A stretch of 64,000 nt of DNA from an uncultured Erysipelotrichaceae bacterium. GTDB taxonomy: Bacteria > Bacillota_I > Bacilli_A > Erysipelotrichales > Erysipelotrichaceae. The notes below the pieces were generated by a model, which made no database searches, had not been told where the DNA came from, and saw nothing but the letters and a program-made list of their open reading frames with translations. Both the position numbers and the translations under genes were made by a program. This document shows positions 31,395-50,842 of this stretch, in pieces; positions within the stretch are counted from its first letter, which is position 1; each line of letters begins with the position of its first letter. The stretch lies in the NCBI GenBank assembly GCA_927435855.1, contig CAKMJZ010000001.1, positions 9,297 to 73,296 on the forward strand. The letters run 5' to 3'.

Positions 31395-32059
31395 ACAAAG
31401 GAAAAGAAATACTAGAAGAACTGACATCGGTGTTATCCGGAAAAACTTTAGATGCTATCCTTCCACCTTTGATATTCGTTATCGTCAATTCTATCTATGG
31501 ACTGACAACAGCCATCATCGTCGCTCTTATCATATCAGCAACTTTCGGTATATATCGGTTAGTACGTAAGCAATCAGGATTATATGCATTGGGTGGATCA
31601 CTTGGAATCTTAATAGCAGGTGGCTTTGCCTTTCTTGCAAATAATGCCTCAAACTACTTTTTGCCCGGCATCGTAACCAATGCGTTTGTGTTAATATTGA
31701 CTGTTGTGACATTAATTATTGATAAACCCTTTGCTGCCTATGCCAGTCACTTAACTCGCGGATGGTCATTGGATTGGTTTTGGCGAAAAGATATAAAGCC
31801 CGCTTATCGGGAAGTGACTTATATGTGGTCTCTGTTCTTTCTGATTCGCACGATTATTCAAGTAACCTTATTCTTATCTGACAATGTCGATGCACTGGTA
31901 TGGGCAAACACGATCATGGGATTGCCTGTGACAGTTGCCGTATTGGTCTTGAGTTATATTTATGGAATTTGGCGGTTGAGGAATCTAAATGGTCCTGGAA
32001 TTGATGAGTATTTGGAAAATAAAAATGCCCCCTTTCGAGGGCAGACTAGAGGATTTTGA
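31391..32059 (+). CDS. Hypothetical polytopic membrane protein (possibly DUF3159-like)
   Basis: ATGA overlap with the upstream gene. 5-6 TM helices. No diagnostic motif. Confidence 0.4.
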   Translation: MNKGKEILEELTSVLSGKTLDAILPPLIFVIVNSIYGLTTAIIVALIISATFGIYRLVRKQSGLYALGGSLGILIAGGFAFLANNASNYFLPGIVTNAFVLILTVVTLIIDKPFAAYASHLTRGWSLDWFWRKDIKPAYREVTYMWSLFFLIRTIIQVTLFLSDNVDALVWANTIMGLPVTVAVLVLSYIYGIWRLRNLNGPGIDEYLENKNAPFRGQTRGF

Positions 32060-32102: not shown

Positions 32103-32896
32103 CTATTCACCCGATGCTAAAGGGGTAGGTGAAATAACTAGATCCTGAGCATCTTTCAATATGACGCCTGCTTTTTGCAAGTATTTCATAAAGTATAAGA
32201 AGGCTAGTTCTACTACACCGGTTACTAGGCGAACACTTACTGAAAGGATAACCATTTGAACAATCTGATCCCAAGGTCTTACGCCAACAAATGCTAGTAA
32301 TGTAAAGATTAAAGCATTTACAGTTAATCCAACGGAAGTAGAAACAAAGACACGCAACCATAACATACTACCTTTCGTGCGTGCTTTTAGCTTAGCGAAA
32401 ATGTGTACATTCAATAAACCACCAATGTATGTTGCGGTGATACTAGCAAATGCTACACGCGGAACAATCCCCATGAGTTTGGCAAACATATCGAAGTTTT
32501 CTTGGCCATTTGCCGGAGCTGGTAAGAAGATGATCCAAATTAAGAATAAAGTTGATAGTACTCGGACGACCATTTGGGCAAATACCGAAGATCTGCGAGT
32601 TTTTTACCATAGAATTCATTAATATAATCTTCTCCGCAAGCCAATAGTGGATACATAAGTGATCCGGCAATGATGAAGAATGTTTGACCACCAAAGGTAA
32701 GTCCAACAAATTTCGCGGATGTAAAGGAGACCATGATTTGTAAGCCGGACATTAAGGCAACCAAGATGACAGGAGCATATCCTTTGCCATAGCGATCTGC
32801 CCAAACAGCGGCGATGACGATGATGATTAGGCCATACCCTAATGTAATAAGTAGATTAGGGACACCTGACCAAGGACCAGTAATAAAAGGTACCAT
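32103..32896 (-). pseudogene. VUT-family (YhhQ/DUF165, queuosine-precursor-type) transporter interrupted by a frameshift
   Basis: Two consecutive ORFs (32540-32926 and 32103-32573) are the N- and C-halves of one VUT protein. Adding one A to the A6 run (plus-strand T6 at 32600-32605) restores ...EFYGKKTRRSSVFAQMVVRVLST... Confidence 0.75.
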
Positions 32897-32929
32897 TTCT
32901 TTCTCCTCCTTAAGAGTTTTTATCAATAA

Positions 32930-35906: not shown

Positions 35907-35948
35907 AGAAATATCCTCCCTCTAGAAAGCTTATCCAATCATAAGCAA

Positions 35949-35976
35949 TTTTAGTAGGGAGTGACCCCTACTAAAA
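35949..35976 (-). other. Intercistronic 11-bp hairpin between the TAXI SBP and permease genes
   Basis: ttttagtaggg...ccctactaaaa perfect stem with no strong U-tract. Likely an mRNA stabiliser or attenuator. Confidence 0.45.
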
Positions 35977-35988
35977 TTATTTCATTGA

Positions 35989-37155: not shown

Positions 37156-37980
37156 TTATATCCATTCTAGTATTGTTTGATACAGTTGCTCTGTCTCATC
37201 ACTTTCAATCTGATCGAATTCATGCTTATTTGACCATGATGTGTAAAGCACAGAATTACCGTATTTTTTTTTAATTTCTAACGAATTCTGATAACTAACA
37301 TCTTTGTCATAAAAGCTTGCTGCAAGAAAAGTGTCAGGAAATTCTATTCCCTCAACATATATATCCGTGTCTAACTTACTGTTATGAATCCCCAACAACT
37401 TTAACCAATTACCCGTTTGCCTTGCATATATGTACAACAGATATCGTTTTAGAAGACTGGTATTGAGAACAGGTTGTTTCTCTATGGAGGACTTCACATC
37501 ATCCCATGACAAATGCGGATATGTAGCGTAGTGTTCACTGGGCAGAATAAACTCTGAAACATTCAGATATTCATACCCGTAGAAAATAATCAGTTTCACA
37601 GGCTTTTTTTGTTGTAGCATGGCCATTCGCTTTGTAAGGAATAAAGCCAAAAAACCTCCAGCAGATCGTCCAAAGAGAATATAGTCATCCGATATACTCA
37701 TTTTTTCATGATTGTTTAAATACCAAATCAATTGATGCTCAACAAAATCACATATCTGAGATAGTGACAATTCCGGAGCTTTAGGATACTCCATGCAGAT
37801 TAAATCATACCCTGCGTTTGTTAGTTTTTTGATGGCATAAATCGGAAGGTCATCTTTAGATCCAAAGATGAACCCTCCGCCATGATAATATACGATCGTT
37901 TTATTTGCACGATTGCCCATCGCCCGGTGCAAGGAGACTTGATGATGAAATCCGCCTATTTCAAGATCGATCGTGTCCAT
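37156..37980 (-). CDS. Alpha/beta hydrolase (esterase/lipase, Abhydrolase_3 type)
   Basis: HGGGF oxyanion motif and GRSAGG nucleophile elbow. Confidence 0.8.
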   Translation of the reverse strand: MDTIDLEIGGFHHQVSLHRAMGNRANKTIVYYHGGGFIFGSKDDLPIYAIKKLTNAGYDLICMEYPKAPELSLSQICDFVEHQLIWYLNNHEKMSISDDYILFGRSAGGFLALFLTKRMAMLQQKKPVKLIIFYGYEYLNVSEFILPSEHYATYPHLSWDDVKSSIEKQPVLNTSLLKRYLLYIYARQTGNWLKLLGIHNSKLDTDIYVEGIEFPDTFLAASFYDKDVSYQNSLEIKKKYGNSVLYTSWSNKHEFDQIESDETEQLYQTILEWI

Positions 37981-37988
37981 AAGTTAGT

Positions 37989-39146
37989 TTACTCGAAAAC
38001 TACACCCGCACGAACTAAAAGTGCAGGTTGGCTTTGGTAAGCAATAACCTCATTGAAAGTTAAAGCTTCAAGAACGGTTATATCAGCTTTCCCTCCGATT
38101 TTTATTCCATAATCCTTAATCGAAAGAACCTTCGCTCCTTCGTTGGTAATCATCTTGAAAACCTGATCAACTTCTTCTTGTAAGAAGAAACGTTGTAAAT
38201 AACTCAATAAAAGGGCCACTTGCTTAACATCACCACTTCCCAACGGATTGAAGAAGTCGCGCATATTATCGCTTGCTAGTCCTACAGGTAATCCTGTCTT
38301 CAACAATCTCTTTACCGGTGCAATGTTGCGTGTGGATATAGCCGTAGGAGCGACAGTCACTCGAAGTTGAGCAACTTCAATATAGTTTATCGCTTCATCT
38401 AATTCTTCAGGTGACAAAGCGCTTAATGTACAAAGATGAATACCATTAACTTTGCCCTGTAGATTCTTCTCAACGATCTTTTTTGACAAATACGGAAGCA
38501 GATAATGTTCACGATTTCCGGATTCATCCAAATGGAAATCAGCTTCAACACTGTATTTCTGGGCTAAGTCCAAGATAAAGTCAATGTGCTTTTCTCCCTC
38601 GCCCTTAGCAATCGTATGTCCACCCACTAAATCAGCACCCATCTTCAAAGCTTCTTCAAGCAAGACTTCCGTTTGTCCATCCCAGAAAACACCTTCCTGA
38701 GCAAACGCTGCTACCTGAAGATGAATTTCATTCTCATACTTTTTCTTCAATTTCAATAAAGCTTCAACACCTTTTAAACCGACACTGCCATCAACATCCA
38801 CGTTGGTACGCCAATGCAATGTTCCAGCTTTGATCGCTCTTTTAATCATTTTCTCAGCACGGACAGTTATATCATCAACCGTGAAGTTCTTCTTCATTTC
38901 ATAAGTAAGAGCACCTTTTTGAGGACCTGTGCCCTCTTGATAAGGCTGTTGCTCATTCAATAAACACTTATCCAAATGTGTATGACAATCTACAAAGCCA
39001 GGAATCGTGACGCGTTTTTTTGCATCAAAAACGACAGTAGCATCTCCATATATTTGATTATCGATATCGACAACGACACCATCTTTGATAGCAATATCGA
39101 CAAGAGCACCGTTAACATTTGCTTTACGGATTAGTACATCCAACAT
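37989..39146 (-). CDS. Cytosine-deaminase/AtzC-like metal-dependent amidohydrolase
   Basis: FVDCHTHLD (HxH), GGH, and a late ASDN metal ligand. 385 aa. Confidence 0.75.
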   Translation of the reverse strand: MLDVLIRKANVNGALVDIAIKDGVVVDIDNQIYGDATVVFDAKKRVTIPGFVDCHTHLDKCLLNEQQPYQEGTGPQKGALTYEMKKNFTVDDITVRAEKMIKRAIKAGTLHWRTNVDVDGSVGLKGVEALLKLKKKYENEIHLQVAAFAQEGVFWDGQTEVLLEEALKMGADLVGGHTIAKGEGEKHIDFILDLAQKYSVEADFHLDESGNREHYLLPYLSKKIVEKNLQGKVNGIHLCTLSALSPEELDEAINYIEVAQLRVTVAPTAISTRNIAPVKRLLKTGLPVGLASDNMRDFFNPLGSGDVKQVALLLSYLQRFFLQEEVDQVFKMITNEGAKVLSIKDYGIKIGGKADITVLEALTFNEVIAYQSQPALLVRAGVVFE

Positions 39147-39147
39147 A

Positions 39148-40245
39148 TTAATCAGCCTTAACGATTGCGGCTACAAGATTTGCGCCTAAAGGGCCTTGAT
39201 GTTCAAATCCGGCAGAAGCCAAAATCATCGTATCACCAATCATAGAGCCAACGATTGCATTCACCACAGCTTTCGCAATGATTCCTTGATATCCGGCTAA
39301 AAAATCAGATCTCATCGTTGTACGACGACCGCGAATGGATCCCATAGCGTCTGCTCCGGCGTTGATAAATACGGTCGCAACGCGATCACGTTGATCTTGT
39401 GGGATCACTTCATCAAATAGAAGACCTGCGGATTTAAAGGCAGCTTTCGCACCATCGACATCCAATGTATCCTTCATGACACCTGAACCGATTTTATACT
39501 TACTGACTGAAGTTTTTGAGTTGCCCATAACAATAATCTTGCTTGCAATTTGTTCATTACCTGCTGAAGTCGACGCTACTTTCGAATACAGATTCCAATT
39601 GGAGCAAATCGCTTCATCAGTTACATCTTCATCTCTAATTTCACCTAATGCAAGAGCTACACCAAGAGCAGAAGCACCCTTAGACTTAGCACCTGCATCC
39701 GCAAAATTGGTTGAGACAACTTTCTTACCACGGCTTTGAGCATCTGCGACACGTGCTGCCGTTAAGTTTGGACACTTAACTTCAACACAATGGACATCAG
39801 CGATATCTTCAATACCGGCTTCTGCCATCGCTTTTCTAACTGCATCCGCAACCAATAGTACGTGCGTGCGTGTACCGTACTCTTCTGGCAACAATACGCG
39901 TGTCAATTGAATCCCTAATGACAGACGTTTTTCGGTAACTTCAACATCTTCCACTTCTCTTCGAGTAAATACGGTGTAGTGCGGGCTCATCAACCCACCG
40001 GTCAACCCGATCATCAACATTGGGATTTGGTCAGCGACTTCCTTACGCGAAACATTCAATTTTTCTGATAACATTAACTCAAAGCTTAAAGCACTGTAAC
40101 CGCGGGCATAACCATCCCCTTCGGTTTGGGCAATGATTGCACAAATCTCCTTTGGATCGACGGTGCCATCATCGATAAGCTTAGCTAACTGAGATACATC
40201 ATCCGGACCTGCCATCGGCAAGCGATATACATTAAAATCTTTCAT
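39148..40245 (-). CDS. Ring-opening amidohydrolase of the cyanuric acid hydrolase (AtzD/TrzD)/barbiturase family
   Basis: Collinear by eye with AtzD as I recall it (VYRLP...TEGDG..RGY...SPHYTVFTRR...VEVKCP...KGASALGVALA...EHQGP). 365 aa. Confidence 0.8.
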   Translation of the reverse strand: MKDFNVYRLPMAGPDDVSQLAKLIDDGTVDPKEICAIIAQTEGDGYARGYSALSFELMLSEKLNVSRKEVADQIPMLMIGLTGGLMSPHYTVFTRREVEDVEVTEKRLSLGIQLTRVLLPEEYGTRTHVLLVADAVRKAMAEAGIEDIADVHCVEVKCPNLTAARVADAQSRGKKVVSTNFADAGAKSKGASALGVALALGEIRDEDVTDEAICSNWNLYSKVASTSAGNEQIASKIIVMGNSKTSVSKYKIGSGVMKDTLDVDGAKAAFKSAGLLFDEVIPQDQRDRVATVFINAGADAMGSIRGRRTTMRSDFLAGYQGIIAKAVVNAIVGSMIGDTMILASAGFEHQGPLGANLVAAIVKAD

Positions 40246-40246
40246 G

Positions 40247-41656
40247 TTATTCCTCCATTTGTTTATATAGTGTCTTTATTGCTTCTTTAAACATTGGCAT
40301 AGGCGCGCGGGCAAGACCTGCACCAACCATGCCACCACCGGCTTTTTTACTTGCAATCGCCGTATTGATGACGGGTAGAGTTCCGGTTTCTACTACTTTG
40401 ATAATGTTAATCCCTAACGGTGATCCTCTGAAATTAAGATTTGGAATAGCGAACATCGCACTTTCACCTAAACAGATGTCATACATTTCATTGGTATAGT
40501 TAAGCGCATCGGAAACTGTGCCCGCTCCAAGGAGTTTAACGATAGCTGGTGCTGCGGCCATAGCGAATCCACCGACCCCACCGGTTTCCATGATAGCACT
40601 ATCCCCAATATCCGGATTAGCGTCTTCTACGGTATATCCCGGGAAATATAGTCCAGCAACTTCCGCGGCTGGCGCTATAAACCATTGCTCGTTCAGTCCA
40701 CTGACTCGAATTCCGATATTGACACCATTTCTTGCCATTGCCGTTACCATCGTTGAGTAAGGTATATTACTCGCTGCATCGGTAGATGCTTTCATCGCCG
40801 CCATCGCAAAGTTTAAGAAAAACTGATCGTTATTCGTTGTCAGAAATCTCGCTATTTCAGGTAACGTCTGAGCATCTGCACTTTCCGTTAGTGCGGCCAT
40901 GATTGTTTTTAGGAAAATCGACGTTGATGAGTTATTGCGCATATGCAACTCATCTCCCATATTCAATGCTTGTGATATCAGAACTTTTAAGTTTACAGGT
41001 CCTTTATCCACAATGTTTTTCATGGTTAAAGCGAGAACATTTTCAATCCACTTCAACCGACGAACGGTATTCTCTCCATATGCCCCAAAACGAGCCACAT
41101 CCCCGGCACCCTCATTAAATGTCGAATATGCCATATTTCCTTCTTCCGTATTCTTTACACAAAGCAAAGGCATAGAATAGGAAATCACGCCCGTCATCGG
41201 TCCGACACATCCGTAATGATGACAAGGTTCAAAGCGAATGCGCGTCAATGCTAATTGATGAGCTTGCTCATCATTATCAGCCAATCCTTCATACATAAGT
41301 GCCGCATACACAGCTCCTTGCATCGGAACACACATATCCTTAAATTCAATGGGCGGACCAGCATGCAAAAGCGTATACCGATCTAAATTTATCGCTTCAT
41401 GTGCCGGTTTGACATCAATCCAAACAGGCGCAGAAGCATTCAGCTTATTAAACGCCTTCTGATTTGCTTCGACTACACGAGGATCACTTGCCAGTGCATC
41501 AACGATTTTAACTAATTCCGGATCTCCTTGGGCACGCGGTTTCCACTCAACATGACCGGATTCGACGTTTTGTTGTTGCAATGTCAGATAAAACTGCTCA
41601 AGTCCGACATTGAGAACATTTAACTTTGATCCGAATAGATTATTAACTGAGCTCAA
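40247..41656 (-). CDS. DUF1116 (YlbE/AllG-like) protein, copy 1
   Basis: 469 aa. Paralog of the 44797-46209 protein. Shares HAGPP, GPMTG, FNEG.G, LKW, NDQFFLN, GDSAI(M/I)ET.G.GGFAM motifs. Confidence 0.8.
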   Translation of the reverse strand: MSSVNNLFGSKLNVLNVGLEQFYLTLQQQNVESGHVEWKPRAQGDPELVKIVDALASDPRVVEANQKAFNKLNASAPVWIDVKPAHEAINLDRYTLLHAGPPIEFKDMCVPMQGAVYAALMYEGLADNDEQAHQLALTRIRFEPCHHYGCVGPMTGVISYSMPLLCVKNTEEGNMAYSTFNEGAGDVARFGAYGENTVRRLKWIENVLALTMKNIVDKGPVNLKVLISQALNMGDELHMRNNSSTSIFLKTIMAALTESADAQTLPEIARFLTTNNDQFFLNFAMAAMKASTDAASNIPYSTMVTAMARNGVNIGIRVSGLNEQWFIAPAAEVAGLYFPGYTVEDANPDIGDSAIMETGGVGGFAMAAAPAIVKLLGAGTVSDALNYTNEMYDICLGESAMFAIPNLNFRGSPLGINIIKVVETGTLPVINTAIASKKAGGGMVGAGLARAPMPMFKEAIKTLYKQMEE

Positions 41657-41678
41657 AATAACACCTACTTTCTCAATA

Positions 41679-43142
41679 TCATTCGACAGGACGGATAAAT
41701 CTGTTCATGCCGATATCCTTCTTAATCTCTCTTAAATACATCTTTCTGTAATAGGGATACTGTTGTTCAAGACGCACAAACGCTTCTTTGGTCGTTGCTG
41801 AGAGTTTATTTGAAATCTCGATAGCTTCTTTTATAAGGGCTTGTTCATCAATCAACAATGATTTACCGTCTTTAACGACAGTCTCACCATCTACCATAAC
41901 ACGAACGATGTTTTGTCCGGTTTCCATATACACCAATTGCGTCATGATATCGCAAACAGGTTGCCACAGAATATTCATCGTGTCGATAAATACCAAGTCA
42001 GCCGCATATCCAACTTCTATCTTACCTATGTCATCACGCATCATCACTCTTGCGCCATTATCATAGCACATCTGTAAGGATTGCTTAGCCGACAGCCAGT
42101 GATCATAATCTGGCTGCGCCAAATTGTGCAAGTCAGCAGTCAAACGTATTTTCTCTAGCAAATTCAGATTTCCGGAATTTCCTCCATCAGTGCCAATAGC
42201 AACTTTATTACCATCTTTTACCAATTGATCGACCGGAGCTACGCCACTACCTAAATGCAAGGATGAACTTGGGCAGTGTACGATATTGACCTGATTCTTG
42301 CGAACCAATTCTTTTTCGATATCAGTAACCCAAATATAATGCACAAAGCTTGTTTTTTTGTTTAACAATCCTAACTCATCAATATACTCAATCAAACCTT
42401 TACCATAGCGGTTATAGGATGCAATAGCCTGAGTTTTCGTTTCCAAAATGTGCGTATGCCAACCGCAGTCATGTTCTTTAACAAAATCAGCTGTTTTATA
42501 CATAAGCTCATCACTGCAACGTTGAGGTCCATCAACTCCGACTACGAAATTCACTTTACTTTTTCCGTTGTACTTATCCATTGCACTTTTCATCAGTTCA
42601 AAATACTCTTCATGGCTCATGGATGATGGTAAACTGTGAAACTCTGAGGGTAACTCATTTTTTTCAAAGGGAATTGTATCTGTAAATGGTAAATCTGAAT
42701 ACTGTGGGGCGATATTCGCCTTGATCCCGCAATCCGTATACGCTAGCGCTGCCGATTCCATACCTTCCAACGTCGCTTTGGGTCTCATCATGAAATGATC
42801 GAAGGTTGAAGTTACTCCAAATTTTAGGAGTTGTAATCCCTCTAATTGAGTTGAAACATAAATTTCCCTTGGATTTCTTACTGTATTCCCCGCAAAGGCA
42901 TGTAACATATAAATGTCCAATGGCACATTATCGATAGTTCCCTTTAGAAAACTAGTATATGAATGAGAATGAGCATTGATTAGTCCAGGGATGACAATCT
43001 GCCCACTTGCATCAAAAGTTTCATCGACAACAACGTAATCACTGTCAAGTTGAGCAATCTTTCCATCTTCTATCAGAATATTCCCCGTTTGCCAAGTATA
43101 ATCTTTAGTCAAATATGTAGCATTGGTTATGAGTTTTTTCAT
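41679..43142 (-). CDS. Amidohydrolase of the deaminase/chlorohydrolase subgroup (COG0402: guanine deaminase/AtzA-AtzB/SsnA-like)
   Basis: INAHSHSY (HxH), HTHILET, VHC, and GTDGG metal/catalytic motifs. 487 aa. Confidence 0.8.
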   Translation of the reverse strand: MKKLITNATYLTKDYTWQTGNILIEDGKIAQLDSDYVVVDETFDASGQIVIPGLINAHSHSYTSFLKGTIDNVPLDIYMLHAFAGNTVRNPREIYVSTQLEGLQLLKFGVTSTFDHFMMRPKATLEGMESAALAYTDCGIKANIAPQYSDLPFTDTIPFEKNELPSEFHSLPSSMSHEEYFELMKSAMDKYNGKSKVNFVVGVDGPQRCSDELMYKTADFVKEHDCGWHTHILETKTQAIASYNRYGKGLIEYIDELGLLNKKTSFVHYIWVTDIEKELVRKNQVNIVHCPSSSLHLGSGVAPVDQLVKDGNKVAIGTDGGNSGNLNLLEKIRLTADLHNLAQPDYDHWLSAKQSLQMCYDNGARVMMRDDIGKIEVGYAADLVFIDTMNILWQPVCDIMTQLVYMETGQNIVRVMVDGETVVKDGKSLLIDEQALIKEAIEISNKLSATTKEAFVRLEQQYPYYRKMYLREIKKDIGMNRFIRPVE

Positions 43143-43155
43143 AAACCCTCCTTTT

Positions 43156-44763
43156 CTACAACACTTGAGTTATAAACAGTATCGCTCCTACAATAACTGC
43201 TGCTGTAACTGTGATCGGTAAAACTTTCTTCAGTACGACACCTTCTTGGCCAAGAATTCCAGCCGTAGTCGTGCCTAAGATAACATTACCTGGACAGATG
43301 GTATTACCGATAGCTCCTCCAGCCGTTTGCGCACCAAGAATAGCCGCTACATTAAGCGATAGAATTCTGGCGGTAGTCAACTGAAATTCACCGAACAGAA
43401 TATTGGATGCCATGTTCGAACTGGTCATAAATGCTCCTAACATACCAACGACCGGTGCGAATATTGCATAGCTTTTTCCTAAAGTTGATGCAATTCCTTG
43501 AGCTAAAATCACTGTTTGACCTGTGCCACCCATAATTCTAGACATAAGTATAAAACCTAACACAGCCAGTGCTGATGGTAATGTCTTTTCAAATGAGCGC
43601 CTCAAAACAGCTTTACCGCCTTCTTTTTGAATCCATCCATGTTTCTTAAAGAAAACATAGCCAATATATGCGGATAGAAGCAAAAACATTCCGGCATGTG
43701 TCAGTGGTGAAAACGGTGAAAACGAAGATGATGCTGCATTGACATATCCATACCCAGTCATCGTTTCAGGAAAAGCAAATCCGAATTTGATCTGACCTAA
43801 AAATTGTTTTATCGGCTGAATTAGCAATACAAACAGCGTGACAAACGTCAGAACATAATAGGGTAGAAAGGCCTGATGCATAGACATGTTTTTAGGATAG
43901 TCTTGAACTGCACCATTATTTTGGCGATTCATAACCTTGCTATCTTCAATCCGCCAAGCCTTTCCATACATTTTAGTTCTTCCTATCAACAATATTGCGA
44001 CCAAAGACAAAACCGCAGGGATAAACGCGGCCAAAGTTTGGTTAACTTGGCTAAGCAAAAGTTGCCCTCCACCTTGTATCAAAGAAATAACGATGACAAC
44101 CGGTAATCCGCGAATAAGACCTTCCTTTTTACCGTAAATCCAACTAATCGCAATTCCCGTAATGAAGTTCCAAACCCAGATGAAACTCGCTGCCCACATT
44201 GCGGTTTGAAGCAAAAGTGCCGGATCAGCCGCCAAATTTGTTTGAAGTACAAGTGCATCCCACGCGACTGCCAATGTTCCAAATGTGTTAGCCCAAGCAT
44301 GTCCGATTAATGGAATCAAAACTGCCCAAATAGGTGTGACACCAATACCGACCAATAGCGGAGCACCAACAGCGACCGGAACACCGAAACCCGTGATACC
44401 TTGTAAGAAACTCATAAATACCCAACCTAAAGCAATGACTTGTACCAACTCATTAGGTGTATATTTTTGTAAACCATTTCTAAACACTACAAAAGCCTTG
44501 GCTTCGTTAACAACTTCAAAAAGTAGTATCGCCGGCCACACTACGATAAGGACGACAATAGTACTCCAAACGCCTTTTAAACTTTCAATTAGAACCAAAA
44601 ATAGGTCTGCTTTATAAAAGAAAAGTCCTGTAACCAAAGCAATGGCAAATCCGATCGGTGCAGCTTTTGTTGCGCCCCATTGGGAGCCAACCATTAAGAC
44701 TAGTAAAACTATGATGGGTAATGCGGCTAAAAGCCACATCCCAATATTCAACGGAATATTCAT
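43156..44763 (-). CDS. LctP-family (L-lactate/glycolate-type) carboxylate permease
   Basis: 535 aa with about 12+ TM helices. The N-terminus (LAALPIIVLLVLMV...W.ATKAAPIG) is typical of LctP. Confidence 0.8.
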   Translation of the reverse strand: MNIPLNIGMWLLAALPIIVLLVLMVGSQWGATKAAPIGFAIALVTGLFFYKADLFLVLIESLKGVWSTIVVLIVVWPAILLFEVVNEAKAFVVFRNGLQKYTPNELVQVIALGWVFMSFLQGITGFGVPVAVGAPLLVGIGVTPIWAVLIPLIGHAWANTFGTLAVAWDALVLQTNLAADPALLLQTAMWAASFIWVWNFITGIAISWIYGKKEGLIRGLPVVIVISLIQGGGQLLLSQVNQTLAAFIPAVLSLVAILLIGRTKMYGKAWRIEDSKVMNRQNNGAVQDYPKNMSMHQAFLPYYVLTFVTLFVLLIQPIKQFLGQIKFGFAFPETMTGYGYVNAASSSFSPFSPLTHAGMFLLLSAYIGYVFFKKHGWIQKEGGKAVLRRSFEKTLPSALAVLGFILMSRIMGGTGQTVILAQGIASTLGKSYAIFAPVVGMLGAFMTSSNMASNILFGEFQLTTARILSLNVAAILGAQTAGGAIGNTICPGNVILGTTTAGILGQEGVVLKKVLPITVTAAVIVGAILFITQVL

Positions 44764-44796
44764 TTCCCTTATCCTCTCTCCATATATTCTAGACTA

Positions 44797-46209
44797 TTAA
44801 TCGTATTTTTCGCCAAAGGCTTCCAAAGCCTTAACGAAACAGTCCATTGGCGGATTTACGATTCCAGCCCCCACTTGGCCGATACCCGGCTTTTTGTGCG
44901 CCATGCCGGTATTGATGACAGGCAAACTGCCTGTTTCAACTACTTTGCGAATATCGATGGCCGTCGCTGTACCAACGAAATTCATGGTCGGAATGACGAA
45001 ATGCGGACTCAATCCGACACATATATCTTGCATTTCCTTCGAGTAAGCAATAGCTTCATCGACTGAACTTGCACCTACAAAGCGAACGACTGCCGGAGCA
45101 GATCCCATCGCGAAACCACCGATTCCGAAAGTCTCAATAATGGTGCTGTCACCGATATCGGGATTAGCATCTTCTGCGGAATAACCCGGGAAATATAACC
45201 CTTTGGGTTGATTGACCGGAGCTTCAAACCATTGCTCTCCTAATGCGCTAATCTTAATACCAAAGTTGGTACCGTTACGACTCAATGTCGTAACTACCGT
45301 ACTATTCGGCACGTTTTTTACCGGATCACAAATGGCTTTACCAGTTGCCATCGCAATATTAAGGAAGAATTGGTCGTTTCCAGTCACAAACTCGGTGATC
45401 TTGAACAATTCTTCTTTGTTATCAACTACTTGAACCAAGTACTTCATAATTTCCCGGACAAACAACGAACTTGCTCCGGTATTGCGTTGGTGCATTTCAT
45501 CACCCATAGCTAATGCTTTAGCAACGATAACTTTTAACGATATTGGACCGGATAATGCTAGCGCCTTCTTCATGGCTGGTCCCAATGATGTTTCCAACCA
45601 CTTCAATCGTTCAATGACATCAGGACCATTTGCACCAAAGCGCATAACTTTCCCCAATCCTTCGTTGAATGGGCAATACGCTTTATTTCCGTAGGAAGTG
45701 TTTGTCACTTCCCAAAGCGGCATCGAATAGGTAACCATACCGGTCATTGGACCAACAGCACCCATGCTATGATTGGGTCTAAATTTAATTTTACCGGCTT
45801 TGACAATTTCTTCAGATTCTTCTAGGCTGCTAGATAGACCTTCGTACATTATGGCCCCAAGGATTGCGCCTTGTAATGGACCACACATGTCTTCCCAAGC
45901 CAGAGGCGGACCAGCATGACCAATGGTATACTTATCCATTCCATCAATTACTTCATAGGCATATTTGACATCCGTTAATACCGGTTCAGCGTTATTCATA
46001 ATATCGAACGCTTTTTTGTTAGCCTCTTCGATTTCCGGAGTATTTAACTTCGCTAACAAAGCGGCAAGTTTCGGATTTCCTCCGGCAATCGGACGCCATT
46101 CGACATGCACAGCGGATACATTTTGTTCAACAACTGTTTGATAGAAAGTTTCCAGTCCGACATTGGTTACTTTAATCGAATGATTAAACAGTTCATTTAC
46201 TTTTGACAT
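44797..46209 (-). CDS. DUF1116 (YlbE/AllG-like) protein, copy 2
   Basis: 470 aa. Sits immediately downstream of the FdrA-like gene, as ylbE does in E. coli. Confidence 0.8.
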   Translation of the reverse strand: MSKVNELFNHSIKVTNVGLETFYQTVVEQNVSAVHVEWRPIAGGNPKLAALLAKLNTPEIEEANKKAFDIMNNAEPVLTDVKYAYEVIDGMDKYTIGHAGPPLAWEDMCGPLQGAILGAIMYEGLSSSLEESEEIVKAGKIKFRPNHSMGAVGPMTGMVTYSMPLWEVTNTSYGNKAYCPFNEGLGKVMRFGANGPDVIERLKWLETSLGPAMKKALALSGPISLKVIVAKALAMGDEMHQRNTGASSLFVREIMKYLVQVVDNKEELFKITEFVTGNDQFFLNIAMATGKAICDPVKNVPNSTVVTTLSRNGTNFGIKISALGEQWFEAPVNQPKGLYFPGYSAEDANPDIGDSTIIETFGIGGFAMGSAPAVVRFVGASSVDEAIAYSKEMQDICVGLSPHFVIPTMNFVGTATAIDIRKVVETGSLPVINTGMAHKKPGIGQVGAGIVNPPMDCFVKALEAFGEKYD

Positions 46210-46221
46210 GACCGTTTCCTC

Positions 46222-47766
46222 CTAAAGTCTTTCTAAAATAAGAGCAGCAAGTTGTGCGGCTTGTGCATTGGTCGGAAGAACGATAATACCAATATTTAAC
46301 AATTTTTCAACTTGATCACTCAGTACTTGAGGATCTTTTTCTGTTCCGCACACAGAAGCGATGTAAGTTATATGACGCTCCCCTTGCAAAGCTTTGGCTT
46401 GTTCAACTGCTAATGCGATAGAGCTTGCCGGGTCCGGATGACTTCCATAACCCAATACACAATCCAAGAGTATTACTGCTGTTTGTGGATCGGATGCTTC
46501 CTTTTTAATACGTTCAGAACGTAATTTTGGTTCGATCATTGGATGAGGCATACCATCTGTAAAGTAATCTTCCCCCATATCCAAGATTGTATTTTCTTGA
46601 CTGACTTCTACATCCTTTAAAGAGAGTTCTTTGTTTATAGCTATATTCGAGTAAACGTTTCCAACTTTTTTGTTAAGAATCAACATGGCTTCATAAGCTA
46701 ACGTACCGCCGGTATACAACCCCCGAAGATTCTTTTGGCCTTGAAATTTATCAACTTCATCAGCAACAAGAGCATTTAACTCTTCCTCCGTGAAACTATT
46801 CAAGTTAACTGATAACTCGCCTTTAGACAATGTCACTAACTGTTTAGCTGCTTCTTCAATCGTTTCAGAAGCGATGGTGTGGGTACCTTCGACTAAGCTA
46901 GGATCTCCACCCAAGAAACATGCGACTACCGGTTTGGAAATGTTTTTTACTTTATCTAAGATTTTAACCATAATTTCTTGTGCTGGTGGTTTAGATACGA
47001 TGCCGATGACTTGTGTTTCAGGGTCGTTGATCAAAGCATCAAGAGCAAACAACATCATTTTCCCACCGATTTCCTTTTTGACATCTCTGCCACCGGTACC
47101 GATGGCTTGAGAAATACCGCCACCGAGCTTATCAATGACTACTGTCAATTCTTGAAGGCCGGTTCCGGATGCTGCAACTAAGCCGATGTTACCTCTTCGA
47201 ACGACATTAGCAAATCCAAGGGCAACACCGTTGATAATGGCAGTTCCACAATCGGTTCCCATCATTAACAATTCATTTTTAATAGCATAGTCTTTAAGTT
47301 CATTTTCCTCATCAATGGTTATATTATCTGAAAATAACAATACGTTCATATTGTTCTTAAGACATTTCATGGTTTCAGCTGCAGCAAATCTTCCCGGAAC
47401 TGAAATAATGGCGAAATTCAAGCCTTCCATTTTCTTAACAGCCGCATCTACCGTTTTAACTCGAATAGCTCCGCTTCCTTCGCTTGACTTTGCTTTATTT
47501 TCAAATTGCTCTTCTAATGTCTTGATGGCCAAATCAATGACATCTTGAGACACTGCTTTGATACCAATGACCAAATCATTTGCGGACACCTTACCAGCCA
47601 GTTCTTCTGAAAGAATTCCCGAGCTTTTCATTAGTTCAATATTGTGATCAGTCCCCATCATTACGGCGGCTTCCGAAACACCATCAATCCCACCTAATTT
47701 GCTAGAGAATAACATTAGTGTTACAGAATCAAAGTATGCATTGTGTTTAATTACATTATGAATCAT
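46222..47766 (-). CDS. FdrA-like (AllF-like) acyl-CoA-synthetase/succinyl-CoA-synthetase-fold protein
   Basis: N-terminal YFDSVTLM motif plus CoA-ligase-like Gly-rich segments. 514 aa. Confidence 0.8.
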   Translation of the reverse strand: MIHNVIKHNAYFDSVTLMLFSSKLGGIDGVSEAAVMMGTDHNIELMKSSGILSEELAGKVSANDLVIGIKAVSQDVIDLAIKTLEEQFENKAKSSEGSGAIRVKTVDAAVKKMEGLNFAIISVPGRFAAAETMKCLKNNMNVLLFSDNITIDEENELKDYAIKNELLMMGTDCGTAIINGVALGFANVVRRGNIGLVAASGTGLQELTVVIDKLGGGISQAIGTGGRDVKKEIGGKMMLFALDALINDPETQVIGIVSKPPAQEIMVKILDKVKNISKPVVACFLGGDPSLVEGTHTIASETIEEAAKQLVTLSKGELSVNLNSFTEEELNALVADEVDKFQGQKNLRGLYTGGTLAYEAMLILNKKVGNVYSNIAINKELSLKDVEVSQENTILDMGEDYFTDGMPHPMIEPKLRSERIKKEASDPQTAVILLDCVLGYGSHPDPASSIALAVEQAKALQGERHITYIASVCGTEKDPQVLSDQVEKLLNIGIIVLPTNAQAAQLAALILERL

Positions 47767-48638
47767 TATTCATTTCCTCCCTTTAGTAATCCAAAATACA
47801 GTCCTGTCAGAAAATCAATTCCAGATGTATGACCGATATCGCGTATCTTTATGATCTCCGATGTAACATCAGTTTCTTCCTGACTTTTAATCAAAACATT
47901 TTTAACCATCTGACTGAACTTGCCATCGCAGGCATAAACGAGAAATTCTTTACTGATAATTGTCGTAGAATTGATGCGAGGTGTAATCTGTGAAATCAAA
48001 TGATTTTTCAATTCATCCGCATGCGAGTTGCCTCTCAAGTAAAATTGTGCTGCAAGCATTCCGCAGTTGAAGTCATCTCCTGATGGAGTCAAACCTTCAC
48101 CAACTCCGATAAGTTGTGCTGACAACGAACCAATCTCCATAACACTAGAGCTATTAGTCAATTTCAATAGAACGCTGGAAACATAATTCCCCGCAAATGA
48201 CAACGGAATAATTTCATTGTCCTTTAAGGATTTTGCGATACGTCCAAATTCGCCTTTTTCGATGTACTTCAGAATATAATCGGTTAATATTCTGATTTTG
48301 ACTTTATCTAATGGAACTGTTCCATCAGTTAAGTCACAATCAAATACTTCAGCATGTTCCCTCGTAAACATTGAATTAAATGCAACAAGACCATCTTTTG
48401 TAAACTGTACTTCATCTCCTCGATTGACACGAATCAATTCAAATACTCGCTTTGGAATATCTAAATTGATACTTAGCGGTGTAATCGGCATCTCTTGATG
48501 TTGTAAAGAGAAAATCCGATCATCAACGATGCAGTTAATCGTACTTTTATAGACAGAATGTACTACAGCACGGTTTTCATTCTCGAAAAGAGGCTTGAAA
48601 TGTTTACAATAGGATTTTATTCGGTCGATAAACATCAC
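47766..48638 (-). CDS. DUF2877 (YlbF/AllH-like) protein
   Basis: 290 aa. Stop overlaps the FdrA-like start. LTPSGDDF..G motif. Start codon uncertain (GTG/ATG at 48638/48635, weak RBS). Confidence 0.65.
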   Translation of the reverse strand: MMFIDRIKSYCKHFKPLFENENRAVVHSVYKSTINCIVDDRIFSLQHQEMPITPLSINLDIPKRVFELIRVNRGDEVQFTKDGLVAFNSMFTREHAEVFDCDLTDGTVPLDKVKIRILTDYILKYIEKGEFGRIAKSLKDNEIIPLSFAGNYVSSVLLKLTNSSSVMEIGSLSAQLIGVGEGLTPSGDDFNCGMLAAQFYLRGNSHADELKNHLISQITPRINSTTIISKEFLVYACDGKFSQMVKNVLIKSQEETDVTSEIIKIRDIGHTSGIDFLTGLYFGLLKGGNE

Positions 48639-48779: not shown

Positions 48780-50447
48780 CTAGTTTACATCAATAATCTT
48801 ACCAATATGTAATGCTAACTGACAATTAAAGTTATATTCCGCATCCTTTAAGTCGTTTTGTAAAATTTGTTTGATCTTCTCAATTCGGTATATAAAGGTG
48901 TTTCGATGTATAAACATCGCCTTCGCTGCGATGCTCACGTTTCCATTGGCCAAATAATAAGACTCCAGCGTGCTCATTAGCTCAGCATTGTTATGTTTAT
49001 CATAATCACGCAAACTTCCAAGGGTTGAATCAAAGAAATTACGAAGTCTTACTTTATCAAGCGTGCTGTCTAGTAAGTGATAACTGATCAAGTCATTAAA
49101 ATAGAAAACTCCTTCACTGGTAGGTAGTTTTGCGGAAATACGCAGAACATCCTGAGCAAGCAAACACGATTTTCCGATAGCGAGAAAATCTGTGCAAACA
49201 TTGCTAACACCAATCCTATATACTAAGCCTTTGCAAGTGGAGTTGATGTTAAGTTCCACACGTTCAAGAAATCCTCGAACTTCAATGCTTGGCTCATAGC
49301 GACTCTCAGCTTCTTCAAGTTCTATAAACATGATCACATTATTTTCGCGAATGATCGACCTTACCCGCCGGCGACATTTCATGGCTACATCACTACATAT
49401 GTTGATGATTTCTTTTAGTGTATCTCGTGGTGCATCTTTTGTATTAATAACCGCACAAATATGGTTGCGCAATGGATTCATTCCGTGAATCTCTGCTAAG
49501 CTTTTTACAGCATTGACCGAAACGATTTTTCCTTGTAGTAAGTCATCATAGAAATCTTCTTTCATCTTATGCTGAGCTTCAATCATTTGTTTGGTCTTAA
49601 CTCTCTCCATCGCTGCCGATTGTGCAGCACTTTCAAGAGCTATATAGTCAATGCTTTCAAGTTTATGAGTGACTTCCCAAACTATGATGTATCCGTAAAT
49701 GATTTGGGAGTATGCAATTGGTATTACTCGACAAACGATACTTCCACTTTCATCTGGAAACTTACGCTTAATACTTAATGTAAACTTATTTGCACTCGTT
49801 GGTATTCCGTCGGTGAATTCCTTAGTAAAAACTTTTTCACGCTCAACCAACTGTAGATTATCTGTCAGTGTGTACGGATTGTTGGGTCGCTCATAGAAAC
49901 TTAGCAGGTTAAAGCCACTATCGAGCATGATTACCGGATTCTCGACCAGATCAGACGTAAGTTTGACAATCTCCCATAAGTTCCCACCATCGATAGAGCA
50001 TTTACTAAAAGCATTGTGAATATCCCTATACTTCTTGAAAACACTGTCCTCTCTTTGATGGACTTCCGCATTGATGATATTGGAAATTTGCGCCAGGCTA
50101 TAGGTAAATGGTATTTCTATGACCGGCAGTCCTCTTGAGTTTGCTTCATCAATGATAGCTTTGGGAATCTCATCCCAATATCTTTTCACTTTGATTCCGA
50201 GTCCTGCGCAATTTTGATCGGCTAACTCTTTAACAAGTTTTCGTTGCAAGGTCGTATCGTTAAGAAAAATATAACCGGTAGTCAAGATGAAATCTCCGGC
50301 CGTGAACCACTCAAAAGAATCCGGATTATCAATGATATTGGCATTAAAAATTTTATTCGTCAATCCTTTTCTTCCAGCTTTCAATTGTGCGCCAACTGGA
50401 CCTAAGTGTTGGATGAGTTTTTCAATAGTAAAGGAGTGCATAAGCAT
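48780..50447 (-). CDS. PucR/CdaR-family transcriptional regulator
   Basis: 555 aa. N-terminal PucR-type sensor domain (GLGIKVKRYWDEIP) and C-terminal HTH (MFIHRNTFIYRIEKIKQIL). GGAGGT RBS. Confidence 0.85.
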   Translation of the reverse strand: MLMHSFTIEKLIQHLGPVGAQLKAGRKGLTNKIFNANIIDNPDSFEWFTAGDFILTTGYIFLNDTTLQRKLVKELADQNCAGLGIKVKRYWDEIPKAIIDEANSRGLPVIEIPFTYSLAQISNIINAEVHQREDSVFKKYRDIHNAFSKCSIDGGNLWEIVKLTSDLVENPVIMLDSGFNLLSFYERPNNPYTLTDNLQLVEREKVFTKEFTDGIPTSANKFTLSIKRKFPDESGSIVCRVIPIAYSQIIYGYIIVWEVTHKLESIDYIALESAAQSAAMERVKTKQMIEAQHKMKEDFYDDLLQGKIVSVNAVKSLAEIHGMNPLRNHICAVINTKDAPRDTLKEIINICSDVAMKCRRRVRSIIRENNVIMFIELEEAESRYEPSIEVRGFLERVELNINSTCKGLVYRIGVSNVCTDFLAIGKSCLLAQDVLRISAKLPTSEGVFYFNDLISYHLLDSTLDKVRLRNFFDSTLGSLRDYDKHNNAELMSTLESYYLANGNVSIAAKAMFIHRNTFIYRIEKIKQILQNDLKDAEYNFNCQLALHIGKIIDVN

Positions 50448-50647: not shown

Positions 50648-50676
50648 ATGACAAGAACGCAAAGTCATGCTAAAAT
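50648..50676 (+). promoter_or_regulatory. Candidate sigma-A promoter of the riboswitch-permease unit
   Basis: ATGACA-17 nt-(TGC)TAAAAT, about 15 nt upstream of the aptamer. Confidence 0.55.
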
Positions 50677-50689
50677 GACTCCATGCTAA

Positions 50690-50760
50690 ACACCGTATAT
50701 CCTTGCGAATAAGGCGCAAGAGTCTCTACCCGGCAACCGTAAACTGCCGGACTACGATGG
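50690..50760 (+). promoter_or_regulatory. Purine riboswitch aptamer, guanine/hypoxanthine/xanthine class
   Basis: CGUAUAUCCUUGCGAAUAAGGCGCAAGAGUCUCUACCCGGCAACCGUAAACUGCCGGACUACG matches the xpt-type P1-P2-P3 architecture and loops. The discriminator position is C (..CCGGAC-UACG). Confidence 0.9.
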
Positions 50761-50778
50761 AAGTCCACTTTTTCAGTG

Positions 50779-50809
50779 CTTCTGTCGAAACGGAAGTTTT
50801 TTCTTTTTT
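50779..50809 (+). terminator. Riboswitch expression-platform terminator
   Basis: cttctg-tcgaaa-cggaag hairpin followed by TTTTTTCTTTTTT. Confidence 0.8.
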
Positions 50810-50842
50810 GGCGGTGAGTAGCACATGAGAAAGGGGAACTAT

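Follow-up and report, generated by a model that had tools for sequence, protein, structure and literature searches.

A conserved, uncharacterised gene cluster joining a divergent ring-opening amidohydrolase to AllFGH-type subunits in an Erysipelotrichaceae bacterium and other bacteria

Gene content and conservation of the cluster

We analysed a stretch of 64,000 nucleotides (nt; hereafter the window) from an uncultured Erysipelotrichaceae bacterium, in which nine closely packed genes, all on the minus strand, form an operon at 37156-48638; all coordinates refer to this window. In transcription order the genes encode a DUF2877-family subunit (AllH), an FdrA-like subunit (AllF), a first DUF1116 subunit (AllG1), an LctP-family permease, a COG0402-type amidohydrolase (AmhA), a second DUF1116 subunit (AllG2), a ring-opening amidohydrolase (RingO), an AtzC-like amidohydrolase or deaminase (AmhB) and an esterase or amidase (Table 1). 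The FdrA-like, DUF1116 and DUF2877 genes are adjacent (44797-48638), and the second DUF1116 gene lies at 40247-41656. AllH and AllF overlap by 1 nt, and the spacings that follow are 12 nt (AllF/AllG1), 33 nt (AllG1/LctP), 13 nt (LctP/AmhA), 22 nt (AmhA/AllG2), 1 nt (AllG2/RingO), 1 nt (RingO/AmhB) and 8 nt (AmhB/esterase). A preliminary description of the same DNA had reported nine packed genes with gaps from a 1-nt overlap to 33 nt; our list of open reading frames (ORFs) reproduces all nine with identical coordinates, and Pfam and NCBIfam profile searches, a kind of check that it had proposed, uphold all nine family assignments. These searches covered the ORFs of the window except about a dozen at its ends (1-7156 and 59598-64000). 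The limits given for the operon were too narrow, because the conserved cluster adds a PucR-family regulator upstream and TAXI-TRAP, FmdA-like amidase and Vut_1 genes downstream, and its true extent is ~18.4 kb, from the PucR gene to the frameshifted Vut_1 gene.

We fetched 80 genome loci (numbered with L below) by alignment to the ring-opener, mapped the window proteins onto them, and also clustered all neighbouring ORFs without prior assumptions; counts by lineage are restricted to those loci whose flanks reach 8 kb or more upstream and 3 kb or more downstream. The closest genomes are Erysipelotrichaceae metagenome-assembled genomes (MAGs), whose ring-openers are 95-96% identical to RingO. 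Among Firmicutes (RingO identity 61-96%), AllF and AllG are present in 14/14 loci, AllH in 13/14, LctP and PucR in 9/14 each, and AmhB in 14/14. Alpha- and Betaproteobacteria (49-55%) carry AllF and AllG in 11 of 12 loci each, AllH in 1/12 (tblastn), AmhB in 4/12 and an HbpS-like gene in 12/12. Bacillaceae (47-51%) have AmhB in all four loci and AllF and AllG in none of them (0/4 each), and Cyanobacteria (51-58%) have AllF and AllG in 0/9 each and AmhB in 1/9. The AmhB gene directly adjoins that of RingO in all 14 Firmicute and all 4 Bacillaceae loci, and AllG2 orthologs stand directly upstream of the ring-opener in most Firmicute loci. The neighbourhood check suggested in the preliminary description thus shows strong conservation, across phyla, of the association between the ring-opener and the FdrA/DUF1116/DUF2877 set. 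This is a real, widely conserved and uncharacterised bacterial gene cluster; it combines known kinds of enzymes in a new way, and its standing as a conserved functional unit is well supported.

The same gene set lies on one strand in a cultured isolate, Natronincola ferrireducens (L085), in the order PucR, AllH, AllF, a 57-aa ORF, AllG, AllG, LctP, carbamate kinase, RingO and AmhB, followed by MFS, DctPQM, an AmhA-like gene, FmdA, Vut_1 and the esterase. The Bacillaceae loci (L055, L067, L069, L077, L082) couple RingO-AmhB with an ABC transporter and PucR, have no AllFGH genes, and add an isochorismatase-family (BiuH/TrtA-like) hydrolase, an amidase-signature enzyme and an FAA-hydrolase; this set is apparently a hydrolytic version of the same pathway, an alternative branch for breakdown of the ureide. 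In Cyanobacteria the neighbours of the RingO type are genes for an ABC transporter, a phosphoribosyltransferase, an HbpS-like protein and a GntR regulator, and often a canonical CAH-type (cyanuric acid hydrolase-type) paralog as well. The HbpS-like/GlcG (PF03928) gene, present in all 12 well-flanked proteobacterial loci (for instance L048, L049 and L064) and many cyanobacterial ones and absent from Firmicutes, lies directly downstream of the ring-opener where the order was mapped (L048, L049).

Table 1. Features of the extended cluster in the window, in transcription order (aa, amino acids).
Feature	Position	Strand	Profile match or remark
PucR-family transcriptional regulator, 555 aa, directly upstream	48780..50447	-	PF07905 9.3e-27, PF13556 8.5e-18, GGDEF_2
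AllH/DUF2877-family subunit, 290 aa, GTG start	47766..48638	-	PF11392 3.6e-24
AllF/FdrA-like subunit, 514 aa, succinyl-CoA-synthetase-alpha-like	46222..47766	-	NF004760 491 bits (cut-off 433); PF00549, PF02629
AllG1, first DUF1116 subunit, 470 aa	44797..46209	-	PF06545 7.7e-87
LctP-family permease, 535 aa	43156..44763	-	PF02652 9.1e-67
AmhA, COG0402-type metal amidohydrolase, 487 aa	41679..43142	-	PF01979 8.5e-46
AllG2, second DUF1116 subunit, 469 aa, TTG start	40247..41656	-	PF06545 2.2e-83
RingO, Toblerone-fold ring-opening amidohydrolase, divergent Q/I/N clade, 365 aa	39148..40245	-	PF09663 2.8e-125
AmhB, AtzC-like mononuclear amidohydrolase or deaminase, 385 aa	37989..39146	-	AtzC best PDB match
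Esterase or amidase, alpha/beta-hydrolase-fold-3, 274 aa	37156..37980	-	PF07859 (Abhydrolase_3) 5.1e-13, PF20434
TAXI-family TRAP solute-binding protein, 325 aa	35989..36966	-	PF16868 3.1e-65
Fused TRAP permease, 622 aa	34038..35906	-	PF06808 2.2e-88
FmdA/AmdA-family amidase, 293 aa	32930..33811	-	PF03069 1.9e-23; best PDB match 2ii1 'acetamidase', 192 bits
Vut_1 (YhhQ-family) transporter gene, frameshifted	32103..32926	-	PF02592 on 3' ORF
Terminator-like hairpin and T-run	32026..32043	-	7-bp stem with 5 G-C pairs, then TTTTTATTTT

The ring-opener and its amidohydrolase partners

To our knowledge, the Toblerone-fold family has two known substrates, cyanuric acid and barbiturate, and at least one of its subgroups has been without a known substrate since about 2012. 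RingO matches the family over its full length (PF09663 over residues 6-362; TIGR02714, 360.7 bits, cut-off 153), and its best match in the PDB is the cyanuric acid hydrolase (CAH) of Moorella (326 bits, E = 2.6e-96), followed by TrzD, AtzD and barbiturase. Each of these four solved relatives has three Ser-Lys dyads and three arginines. In Moorella numbering, RingO keeps Ser231, Lys161, Arg52, Glu235, Ser347 and the metal loop (Ser227, Lys157, Arg48 and Glu231 in its own numbering, with a FEHQGP metal-loop motif) and carries the changes Lys40 to Gln, Ser83 to Ile, Lys299 to Asn, Arg193 to Lys and Arg328 to Lys (Gln40, Ile79, Asn295, Lys189 and Lys325 in RingO). Of the three Ser-Lys dyads and three active-site arginines of its relatives, it retains one each. 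In 232 full-length homolog clusters from two database searches, the central catalytic set and EHQGP are essentially invariant and the exact ten-residue signature occurs in 218; with so many clusters having the same signature, the altered pocket is under selection rather than decaying. In a neighbour-joining tree the RingO (Q/I/N) clade is monophyletic and branches deeply, as the sister group of a clade that unites barbiturase, all CAHs and the canonical paralogs of cyanobacteria.

Published work bears on most of these positions. The central dyad and Arg52 are identified as a catalytic set under strict conservation (PMC6557486, PMC4051656, PMC3758960), to which two of these papers (PMC6557486, PMC4051656) add Glu235. 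In the CAH of A. caulinodans, S79A causes a ~10^8-fold loss of activity, K40A and K285A ~10^4-fold and R188K ~5,000-fold losses (PMC4051656), and in AtzD alanine at any of the six dyad residues, including Lys42, Ser85 and Lys296, gives an inactive protein (PMC3758960). Mutants have thus been published at four of the five changed positions, the exception being that of Arg328 to Lys, where barbiturase likewise has Lys. The barbiturase signature (Asn195, His321, Lys325, Val345 and Ser/Ala346 in AtzD numbering) reads Lys, Gly, Lys, Ala and Gly in RingO, so that only Lys325 is shared. These residue comparisons set RingO apart from both the canonical cyanuric acid hydrolases and barbiturase. Of the earlier label 'barbiturase/cyanuric-acid-hydrolase-type', therefore, the fold stands and the active site, with five fixed changes, does not. 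The preliminary description had named a plain cyanuric acid hydrolase with unrelated regulation, together with an FdrA set limited to oxalurate, as a finding that would speak against its interpretation; the five active-site changes and the separate sister clade point away from one.

That some clades of the family are without the outer dyads has been noted already, and the single assayed member of 'Group V', a group similar in sequence, AZC_3203 of A. caulinodans, was inactive on both cyanuric and barbituric acid (PMC3758960). A link between AZC_3203 and the RingO clade was considered and dropped; the protein was not among the best 120 matches of two homolog searches seeded with proteobacterial members. 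The Frankia structure 5HY0 was considered as a member of the same subgroup and rejected, with 206 bits to RingO compared with 326 for Moorella CAH. Members of the RingO clade are labelled 'cyanuric acid amidohydrolase' by JGI and NCBI; given the active-site differences, these are probably over-annotations that spread through metagenome function tables, where they would make the potential for triazine degradation look larger than it is. Moreover, six cyanobacterial loci (L029, L033, L039, L041, L047, L079) bear a canonical CAH-type paralog near the Q/I/N-type ring-opener, along with the phosphoribosyltransferase, HbpS-like and GntR genes, an ABC transporter of the NMT1 type and an FmdA-like amidase. 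These paralogs show the GKTEGN, SGGTEG and AKAEA motifs and are 35-39% identical to the window RingO, and the presence of two ring-openers per locus suggests two different ring substrates.

The best PDB match of AmhB is AtzC, at 204 bits, compared with 116 for cytosine deaminase; of the earlier description 'cytosine-deaminase/AtzC-like' we accordingly keep the second half and drop the first. AmhB keeps the AtzC metal ligands His60, His62, His217 and Asp303 and the catalytic His249. It also keeps the ring-binding residues Lys65, Gln160 and Asn304, which are docked on the dioxo face of ammelide and set AtzC apart from cytosine deaminase; metal ligands, His249 and ring-binding residues alike are invariant in all the RingO-adjacent orthologs. 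At aromatic position 309 it has Phe in place of the Trp309 of AtzC. At the site of AtzC His219 its sequence is HLDES, an HxDE motif resembling the HxxE of cytosine deaminase, and a counterpart of Asp188 is missing (the alignment has a gap there, and HMMER puts Thr at this place); some proteobacterial copies of AmhB retain the AtzC form. These results point to AmhB as a deaminase of an amino-dioxo six-membered ring that would supply RingO. For AmhA, which scores under every NCBIfam equivalog cut-off, the best PDB relatives are MTA/SAH deaminase, 8-oxoguanine deaminase/AtzB, AtzA and TrzN. Its gene is found within the operon only in the nearest relatives and elsewhere in the cluster in Natronincola; AmhA would thus be accessory, as only the nearest relatives carry its gene in the operon.

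The AllFGH-type set, carbamate kinase and the proposed pathway

The E. coli genes allFGHK (fdrA-ylbE-ylbF-ybcF) encode oxamic transcarbamylase and a catabolic carbamate kinase (PMC11326118, PMC9843812), and the identity of AllFGH as the transcarbamylase is experimental, in agreement with the assignment of fdrA-ylbE-ylbF as oxamate carbamoyltransferase in the preliminary description (PMC11326118). The window likewise encodes the same three protein families together, and phosphorolysis of an N-carbamoyl amide to carbamoyl phosphate, followed by ATP formation by carbamate kinase, is predicted for it as well. It differs from the E. coli genes in being without allantoin genes, in having two DUF1116 paralogs instead of one, in bearing a ~55-aa module on the N-terminus of DUF1116 rather than the C-terminus of FdrA, and in joining the set to a ring-opening amidohydrolase in one operon. 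None of the allantoin-to-oxalurate genes allB, allC, allE and allD is found among the profiled ORFs of the window or the annotated recurrent neighbour families, and the reported lack of an allantoinase, an allantoate amidohydrolase and a ureidoglycolate dehydrogenase holds for the profiled ORFs.

The window set is as near to YahEFG of E. coli as to AllFGH. The uncharacterised E. coli yahE-yahF-yahG-yahI-yahJ cluster has DUF2877, FdrA-like, DUF1116, carbamate-kinase-like and deaminase-like amidohydrolase genes on one strand. The domain split of YahF and YahG (515 and 472 aa) matches that of the window AllF and AllG, and AmhB and YahJ are distant relatives (28% identity, E = 3e-27). Unlike the window, the yah cluster has neither a ring-opening amidohydrolase nor a second DUF1116 gene, and YahJ starts with MKESNSRREFLSQSG, resembling a putative Tat export signal, an N-terminal extension that AmhB does not have. 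The window AllF shows 45% identity with YahF and 38% with FdrA and has no counterpart of the FdrA C-terminal tail. AllH is ~32% identical to both YlbF and YahE over ~115 aa. AllG1 and AllG2 share 51% identity, and each is about equally distant from YlbE and YahG; in neighbour-joining trees without support values, AllG1 and the RingO-adjacent AllG2 form two sister clades of Firmicute sequences, neither of which falls within the branch of YlbE or that of YahG. Two Oscillospiraceae MAGs (L015 at ~17-20 kb, L025 at ~2-5 kb) bear an extra YlbE-like AllF-AllG pair beside the RingO-linked AllH-AllF-AllG2, and the two kinds of paralogs appear to be non-redundant there. The window set is hence a paralog, and not clearly an ortholog, of the oxalurate enzyme; a set acting only on oxalurate, which the preliminary description had listed, jointly with a plain cyanuric acid hydrolase, as evidence against its interpretation, is not what the closeness of AllF to YahF and the position of AllG1 and AllG2 outside the YlbE clade suggest.

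The ~55-aa module (VxNVGLExF...VxWxPxAGGNxKL) forms the C-terminal tail of E. coli FdrA (L084), occupies the N-terminal end in YahG, in AllG1 (residues 1-56) and in AllG2 (residues 1-55), and is free-standing as the 57-aa ORF of Natronincola (L085:4024-4197); residues 7-56 of AllG1 match FdrA 506-555. The module likely serves to dock the F and G subunits.

A neighbour family of ~313 aa is a genuine carbamate kinase (TIGR00746, 416.6 bits, cut-off 358), and 11 of 26 loci, made up of 4/14 Firmicute and 7/12 proteobacterial ones, carry its gene within the cluster or next to it (the loci with this gene include L008, L016, L019, L021, L038, L045, L059, L064 and L085). It stands within the operon, between LctP and RingO, in L008 and Natronincola; directly after AmhB in the cultured isolate Liberiplasma polymorphum and in an Izimaplasma MAG; and beside the AllF/G genes in L016 and in the seven proteobacterial loci (7/12). 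Linked carbamate kinase genes are the strongest independent support for a step that forms carbamoyl phosphate and yields ATP, and they support the energy-conserving logic put forward in the preliminary description.

We favour, with slightly better than even confidence, the reading that this is a PucR-controlled catabolic cluster for an amino-/oxo-substituted six-membered N-heterocycle that is neither cyanurate nor barbiturate. The ring is probably derived from a purine or pyrimidine, and it is probably not cyanuric acid or barbiturate. The substrate would enter through the TRAP and/or Vut_1 carriers. AmhB would deaminate an amino-dioxo ring hydrolytically to a more oxidised ring, with help from AmhA in some genomes, and RingO, using its single intact Ser227-Lys157 dyad and Arg48, would open that ring to an N-carbamoyl (acyl-urea type) acid. 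The predicted AllF-AllG1/AllG2-AllH carbamoyltransferase would then act with phosphate on the RingO product to give carbamoyl phosphate and a primary amide. Carbamate kinase, encoded outside the window and within the cluster in many relatives, would convert carbamoyl phosphate to ATP; the FmdA-like amidase, and possibly the esterase, would deamidate the remainder. The LctP-type carrier would move a small acid, and PucR would control the cluster.

A full-text literature search, the coverage of which is incomplete so that absence is not proof, found no description of the AtzD family linked with FdrA, DUF1116 or DUF2877 and no account of this locus or pathway. The interpretation as deamination, ring opening and phosphorolysis given in the preliminary description is supported, with its chemistry inferred from sequence: the proteins fall in the families named, the gene association is conserved, neither an oxalurate-only set nor a plain cyanuric acid hydrolase is indicated, and the search returned no earlier account.

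Several points weigh against the reading favoured here. The three amidohydrolases of the window are homologs of three consecutive s-triazine enzymes, and RingO narrowly exceeds the cut-off of the NCBIfam cyanuric acid hydrolase equivalog NF052395 (366.1 bits, cut-off 360), which contradicts the residue-level comparison. Detection of AllH in Proteobacteria is poor (tblastn, 1/12). The RingO clade occurs without AllFGH in Cyanobacteria and Bacillaceae, and the phosphorolytic step is therefore not obligatory for the clade. Carbamate kinase is absent from the whole 64,000 nt by tblastn, as reported before; because the window has none, the enzyme would be encoded elsewhere in the source genome. The scan patterns were derived from this RingO clade, so that the counts describe the clade and not the whole family; ORFs were called in a crude way, and the trees were built by neighbour joining, without support values. 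What is said above on the roles of LctP, the esterase and the two paralogs of AllG is guesswork.

Of the alternatives, the one that survives best, which we nevertheless consider unlikely, is an s-triazine pathway from ammeline or ammelide to cyanuric acid, in which AmhA would be AtzB/TrzA-like, AmhB AtzC/TrzC-like and RingO a working CAH, while AllFGH would phosphorolyse carboxybiuret, biuret or allophanate in place of biuret/allophanate hydrolases. Three consecutive steps of the lower s-triazine pathway (AtzB/TrzA, AtzC/TrzC, AtzD/TrzD) have homologs in the window; among characterised enzymes, AtzC stands nearest to AmhB, the AtzA/AtzB/TrzN group to AmhA and Moorella CAH to RingO; and AmhB shares Lys65, Gln160 and Asn304, by which AtzC recognises the ring. 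The marginal pass of NF052395 and the pairing of the RingO clade with BiuH-family and AtzE/F-family enzymes in Bacillaceae also agree with such a pathway. In a Nitrospira metagenomic study, allFGH and carbamate kinase lie beside triuret and biuret genes (PMC12625717), a context that hints that AllFGH enzymes act on other carbamoyl-amides. However, RingO carries five fixed changes, while S79A, K40A, K285A and R188K cut CAH activity ~5x10^3 to 10^8-fold and alanine mutants of AtzD Lys42, Ser85 and Lys296 are inactive; it is two dyads and two arginines short, and AmhB has HxDE and not His219. That several cyanobacteria keep a canonical CAH-type paralog beside one of the Q/I/N type speaks for different substrates, and the only assayed 'Group V' member, which may or may not belong to the RingO clade, is inactive on cyanuric and barbituric acid (PMC3758960). 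The downstream enzymes in the window are of the AllFGH type, unlike AtzEGH/AtzF or BiuH, and the cluster lies on the chromosome, is linked to PucR and is common among anaerobes. A natural metabolite fits better than a xenobiotic with a PucR-controlled clade that is widespread in anaerobic-digester, gut and cyanobacterial genomes.

Rather less probable still is a third, hitherto unrecognised anaerobic route for purines or aminopyrimidines, in which the six-membered ring would be kept until last and undergo deamination, Q/I/N opening and phosphorolysis by a two-specificity AllF-AllG1/AllG2-AllH enzyme. An amino-dioxopyrimidine (for example 5,6-diaminouracil, 6-aminouracil or a dietary aminopyrimidine), the first two being what would be left after loss of the imidazole carbon, would be turned into a substituted barbiturate by the AtzC-like enzyme. 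The Q/I/N-clade enzyme would open this compound, and the acyl-urea would be phosphorolysed by the two-specificity AllF-AllG1/AllG2-AllH transcarbamylase, so that ring nitrogen and carbon would leave as carbamoyl phosphate and ATP would arise by substrate-level phosphorylation. If true, this would give a first function both to a Toblerone-fold clade lacking a substrate and to YahEFG-like paralogs. The reductive urate and 2,8-dioxopurine routes of gut anaerobes (XdhD-YgfM, YgfK, SsnA, HyuA, YgeW, YqeA, YgeY, YgeX; 10.1101/2025.05.19.654654) are similar in that anaerobic breakdown of an N-heterocycle ends in a carbamoyltransferase and ATP from carbamate kinase, but the protein families are entirely different, YgeW being an OTC/ATC-type transcarbamylase. 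None of the signature genes unique to these routes is among the profiled ORFs of the window, which does have an enzyme of the xanthine dehydrogenase (XDH) family and whose AmhA shows some similarity to SsnA. FdrA, DUF1116, ring-opening enzymes, cyanuric acid and barbiturate go unmentioned in two preprints of 2025 on urate breakdown by anaerobes, which describe another set of genes.

We find it hard to favour an anaerobic variant of the oxidative pyrimidine pathway, by which the XDH-family enzyme would hydroxylate uracil or thymine to barbiturate, RingO would be a barbiturase, and AllFGH would phosphorolyse ureidomalonate to carbamoyl phosphate and malonamate. A three-subunit molybdenum hydroxylase and a MobA-like gene do lie 5 kb upstream, the FmdA-like amidase could hydrolyse malonamate, and ureidomalonate is an acyl-urea one carbon longer than oxalurate. 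The Rhodococcus pathway (uracil dehydrogenase, barbiturase, ureidomalonase) is also alike in that a Toblerone-fold enzyme opens a trioxo ring and cleavage of a ureido-acyl compound follows. However, the cleavage in the window is predicted to be phosphorolytic and not hydrolytic. The hydroxylase is not conserved beside window-type clusters: the gene of its Mo subunit stands beside the cluster in 0/39 well-flanked loci, a count that leaves room for a lineage-specific link, since the flanks of the closest relatives stop short of the region beyond PucR, and we rejected the XDH-family genes as a conserved part of the cluster. RingO does not have the barbiturase signature, with Lys, Gly, Ala and Gly at Asn195, His321, Val345 and Ser346; barbiturase itself keeps all three Ser-Lys dyads, and the invariant AtzC-like partner would have no role in a route from uracil to barbiturate.

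Mere co-location, with AllF/G/H as an ordinary oxamate carbamoyltransferase fed with oxalurate from another source, LctP exporting oxamate (a pyruvate or lactate analogue that would suit such a carrier) and RingO-AmhB unrelated, is equally hard to favour, since the tight linkage recurs across orders and phyla with an AllG2-RingO spacing of 1 nt, the profiled part of the window has no allantoin-pathway genes, the YlbE clade contains neither AllG1 nor AllG2, a YlbE-like pair exists separately in L015 and L025, and AllF is nearer to YahF than to FdrA. What speaks for it is that AllFGH acts experimentally on oxalurate in E. coli (PMC11326118).

Under the favoured reading, that of catabolism of an amino-/oxo-substituted N-heterocycle, a large conserved Toblerone-fold subgroup gains a pathway context and an obligatory AtzC-like partner, which together would narrow the candidate substrates to amino-/oxo-six-membered heterocycles. 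The AllFGH class of transcarbamylases was assigned a function in 2024, and its occurrence in a second conserved, non-allantoin context with duplicated DUF1116 suggests a phosphorolytic 'ureide-to-ATP' enzyme family and provides a lead for the uncharacterised yahEFGIJ genes of E. coli. The natural pairing of AtzC-like and AtzD-like enzymes may be the pre-industrial function behind the enzymes recruited into the atrazine pathway. With two cultured hosts, Natronincola ferrireducens and Liberiplasma polymorphum, the cluster is directly testable there.

Regulator, accessory genes and flanking features

The regulator gene upstream encodes PucR N-terminal, GGDEF-like and C-terminal HTH_30 domains and lies beside catabolic genes, as in a purine catabolism regulon of the PucR type; a PucR gene is found with the cluster in 9/14 loci of Firmicutes, in 4/4 of Bacillaceae, and in L085 and L086. 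The LctP permease scores under the cut-offs of TIGR00795 and the lactate/glycolate equivalogs and is a candidate carrier of a small acid or amide, as product or substrate. The TAXI gene is with the cluster in L005, L007, L008, L019 and L020, where the TRAP permease gene co-occurs with it, and DctPQM is found instead in Natronincola. The FmdA-like amidase is a candidate hydrolase for the primary amide that would remain after carbamoyl transfer, and its gene is paired with Vut_1 in L009, L015, L016, L025, L045, L056, L085 and L086. The Vut_1 gene of the window consists of two overlapping ORFs, with a 1-nt deletion relative to the intact L086 ortholog (tblastn, two frames), and is either a pseudogene or the product of a sequencing error. 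By clustering, the esterase gene is present in 7 Firmicute loci; it is also the last gene of the Natronincola cluster. The accessory end varies, with esterase-FmdA-Vut_1 in L086 and esterase-TAXI-TRAP in L020 and L005, and the window carries both.

Scans for promoters and terminators tell little inside the operon, where promoter-like sites are fewer than in shuffled sequences and terminator-like sites are weak; the hairpin at 32026-32043 likely marks the 3' end of the cluster. A palindrome upstream of TAXI and allH (TGCAAWTTGCA, one mismatch) was considered as an operator and rejected because it is not enriched (4 matches, 2.9 expected). A perfect-looking hairpin with a 13-15 bp stem (35946-35979) lies in the 82-nt gap between the TAXI and TRAP permease genes and may be an mRNA-stability or attenuation element setting the ratio of binding protein to permease. 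Directly upstream of the FmdA-like gene there is a 44-nt direct repeat (33819-33862/33874-33917, 91% identical, 55-nt spacing), each copy of which holds the reverse complement of a ribosome-binding-site-like GAAAGGAG.

On the plus strand, a purine riboswitch (RF00167, 78.6 bits, 50673-50797) has C at the specificity position, which places it in the guanine/hypoxanthine class; a terminator-like hairpin (50778-50797) precedes the 447-aa Xan_ur_permease-family gene (50825-52168, +), which is divergent from PucR. The unit looks like a salvage-type OFF switch outside the catabolic operon, and the riboswitch was rejected as controller of the operon because, being an OFF switch of the guanine class and lying on the other strand, it controls the divergent permease only. 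Beyond this riboswitch, no other Rfam family was found in the untranslated regions of the cluster at E <= 0.1.

The XDH-family molybdoenzyme region (52221-57382, -) contains FAD (53322-54170), 2Fe-2S (54164-54634) and Mo (54631-56751) subunit genes together with a MobA-like gene and genes for an NTPase_1 protein and a 204-aa protein without family; the Mo subunit scores under every NCBIfam equivalog cut-off (best pucD, 397 compared with 784). The idea that the cluster is a mobile element or island was rejected, as GC content is even and the flanking housekeeping genes are syntenic in relatives. The profiled remainder of the window is housekeeping, with a fab/acc operon, a biotin ligase and a subtilase. 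The fatty-acid synthesis (acc/fab) operon (7157-17582, -) has a GC content of 0.43-0.455, compared with a window average of ~0.40, and includes two adjacent genes for NMO-family (FabK-like) enoyl reductases.

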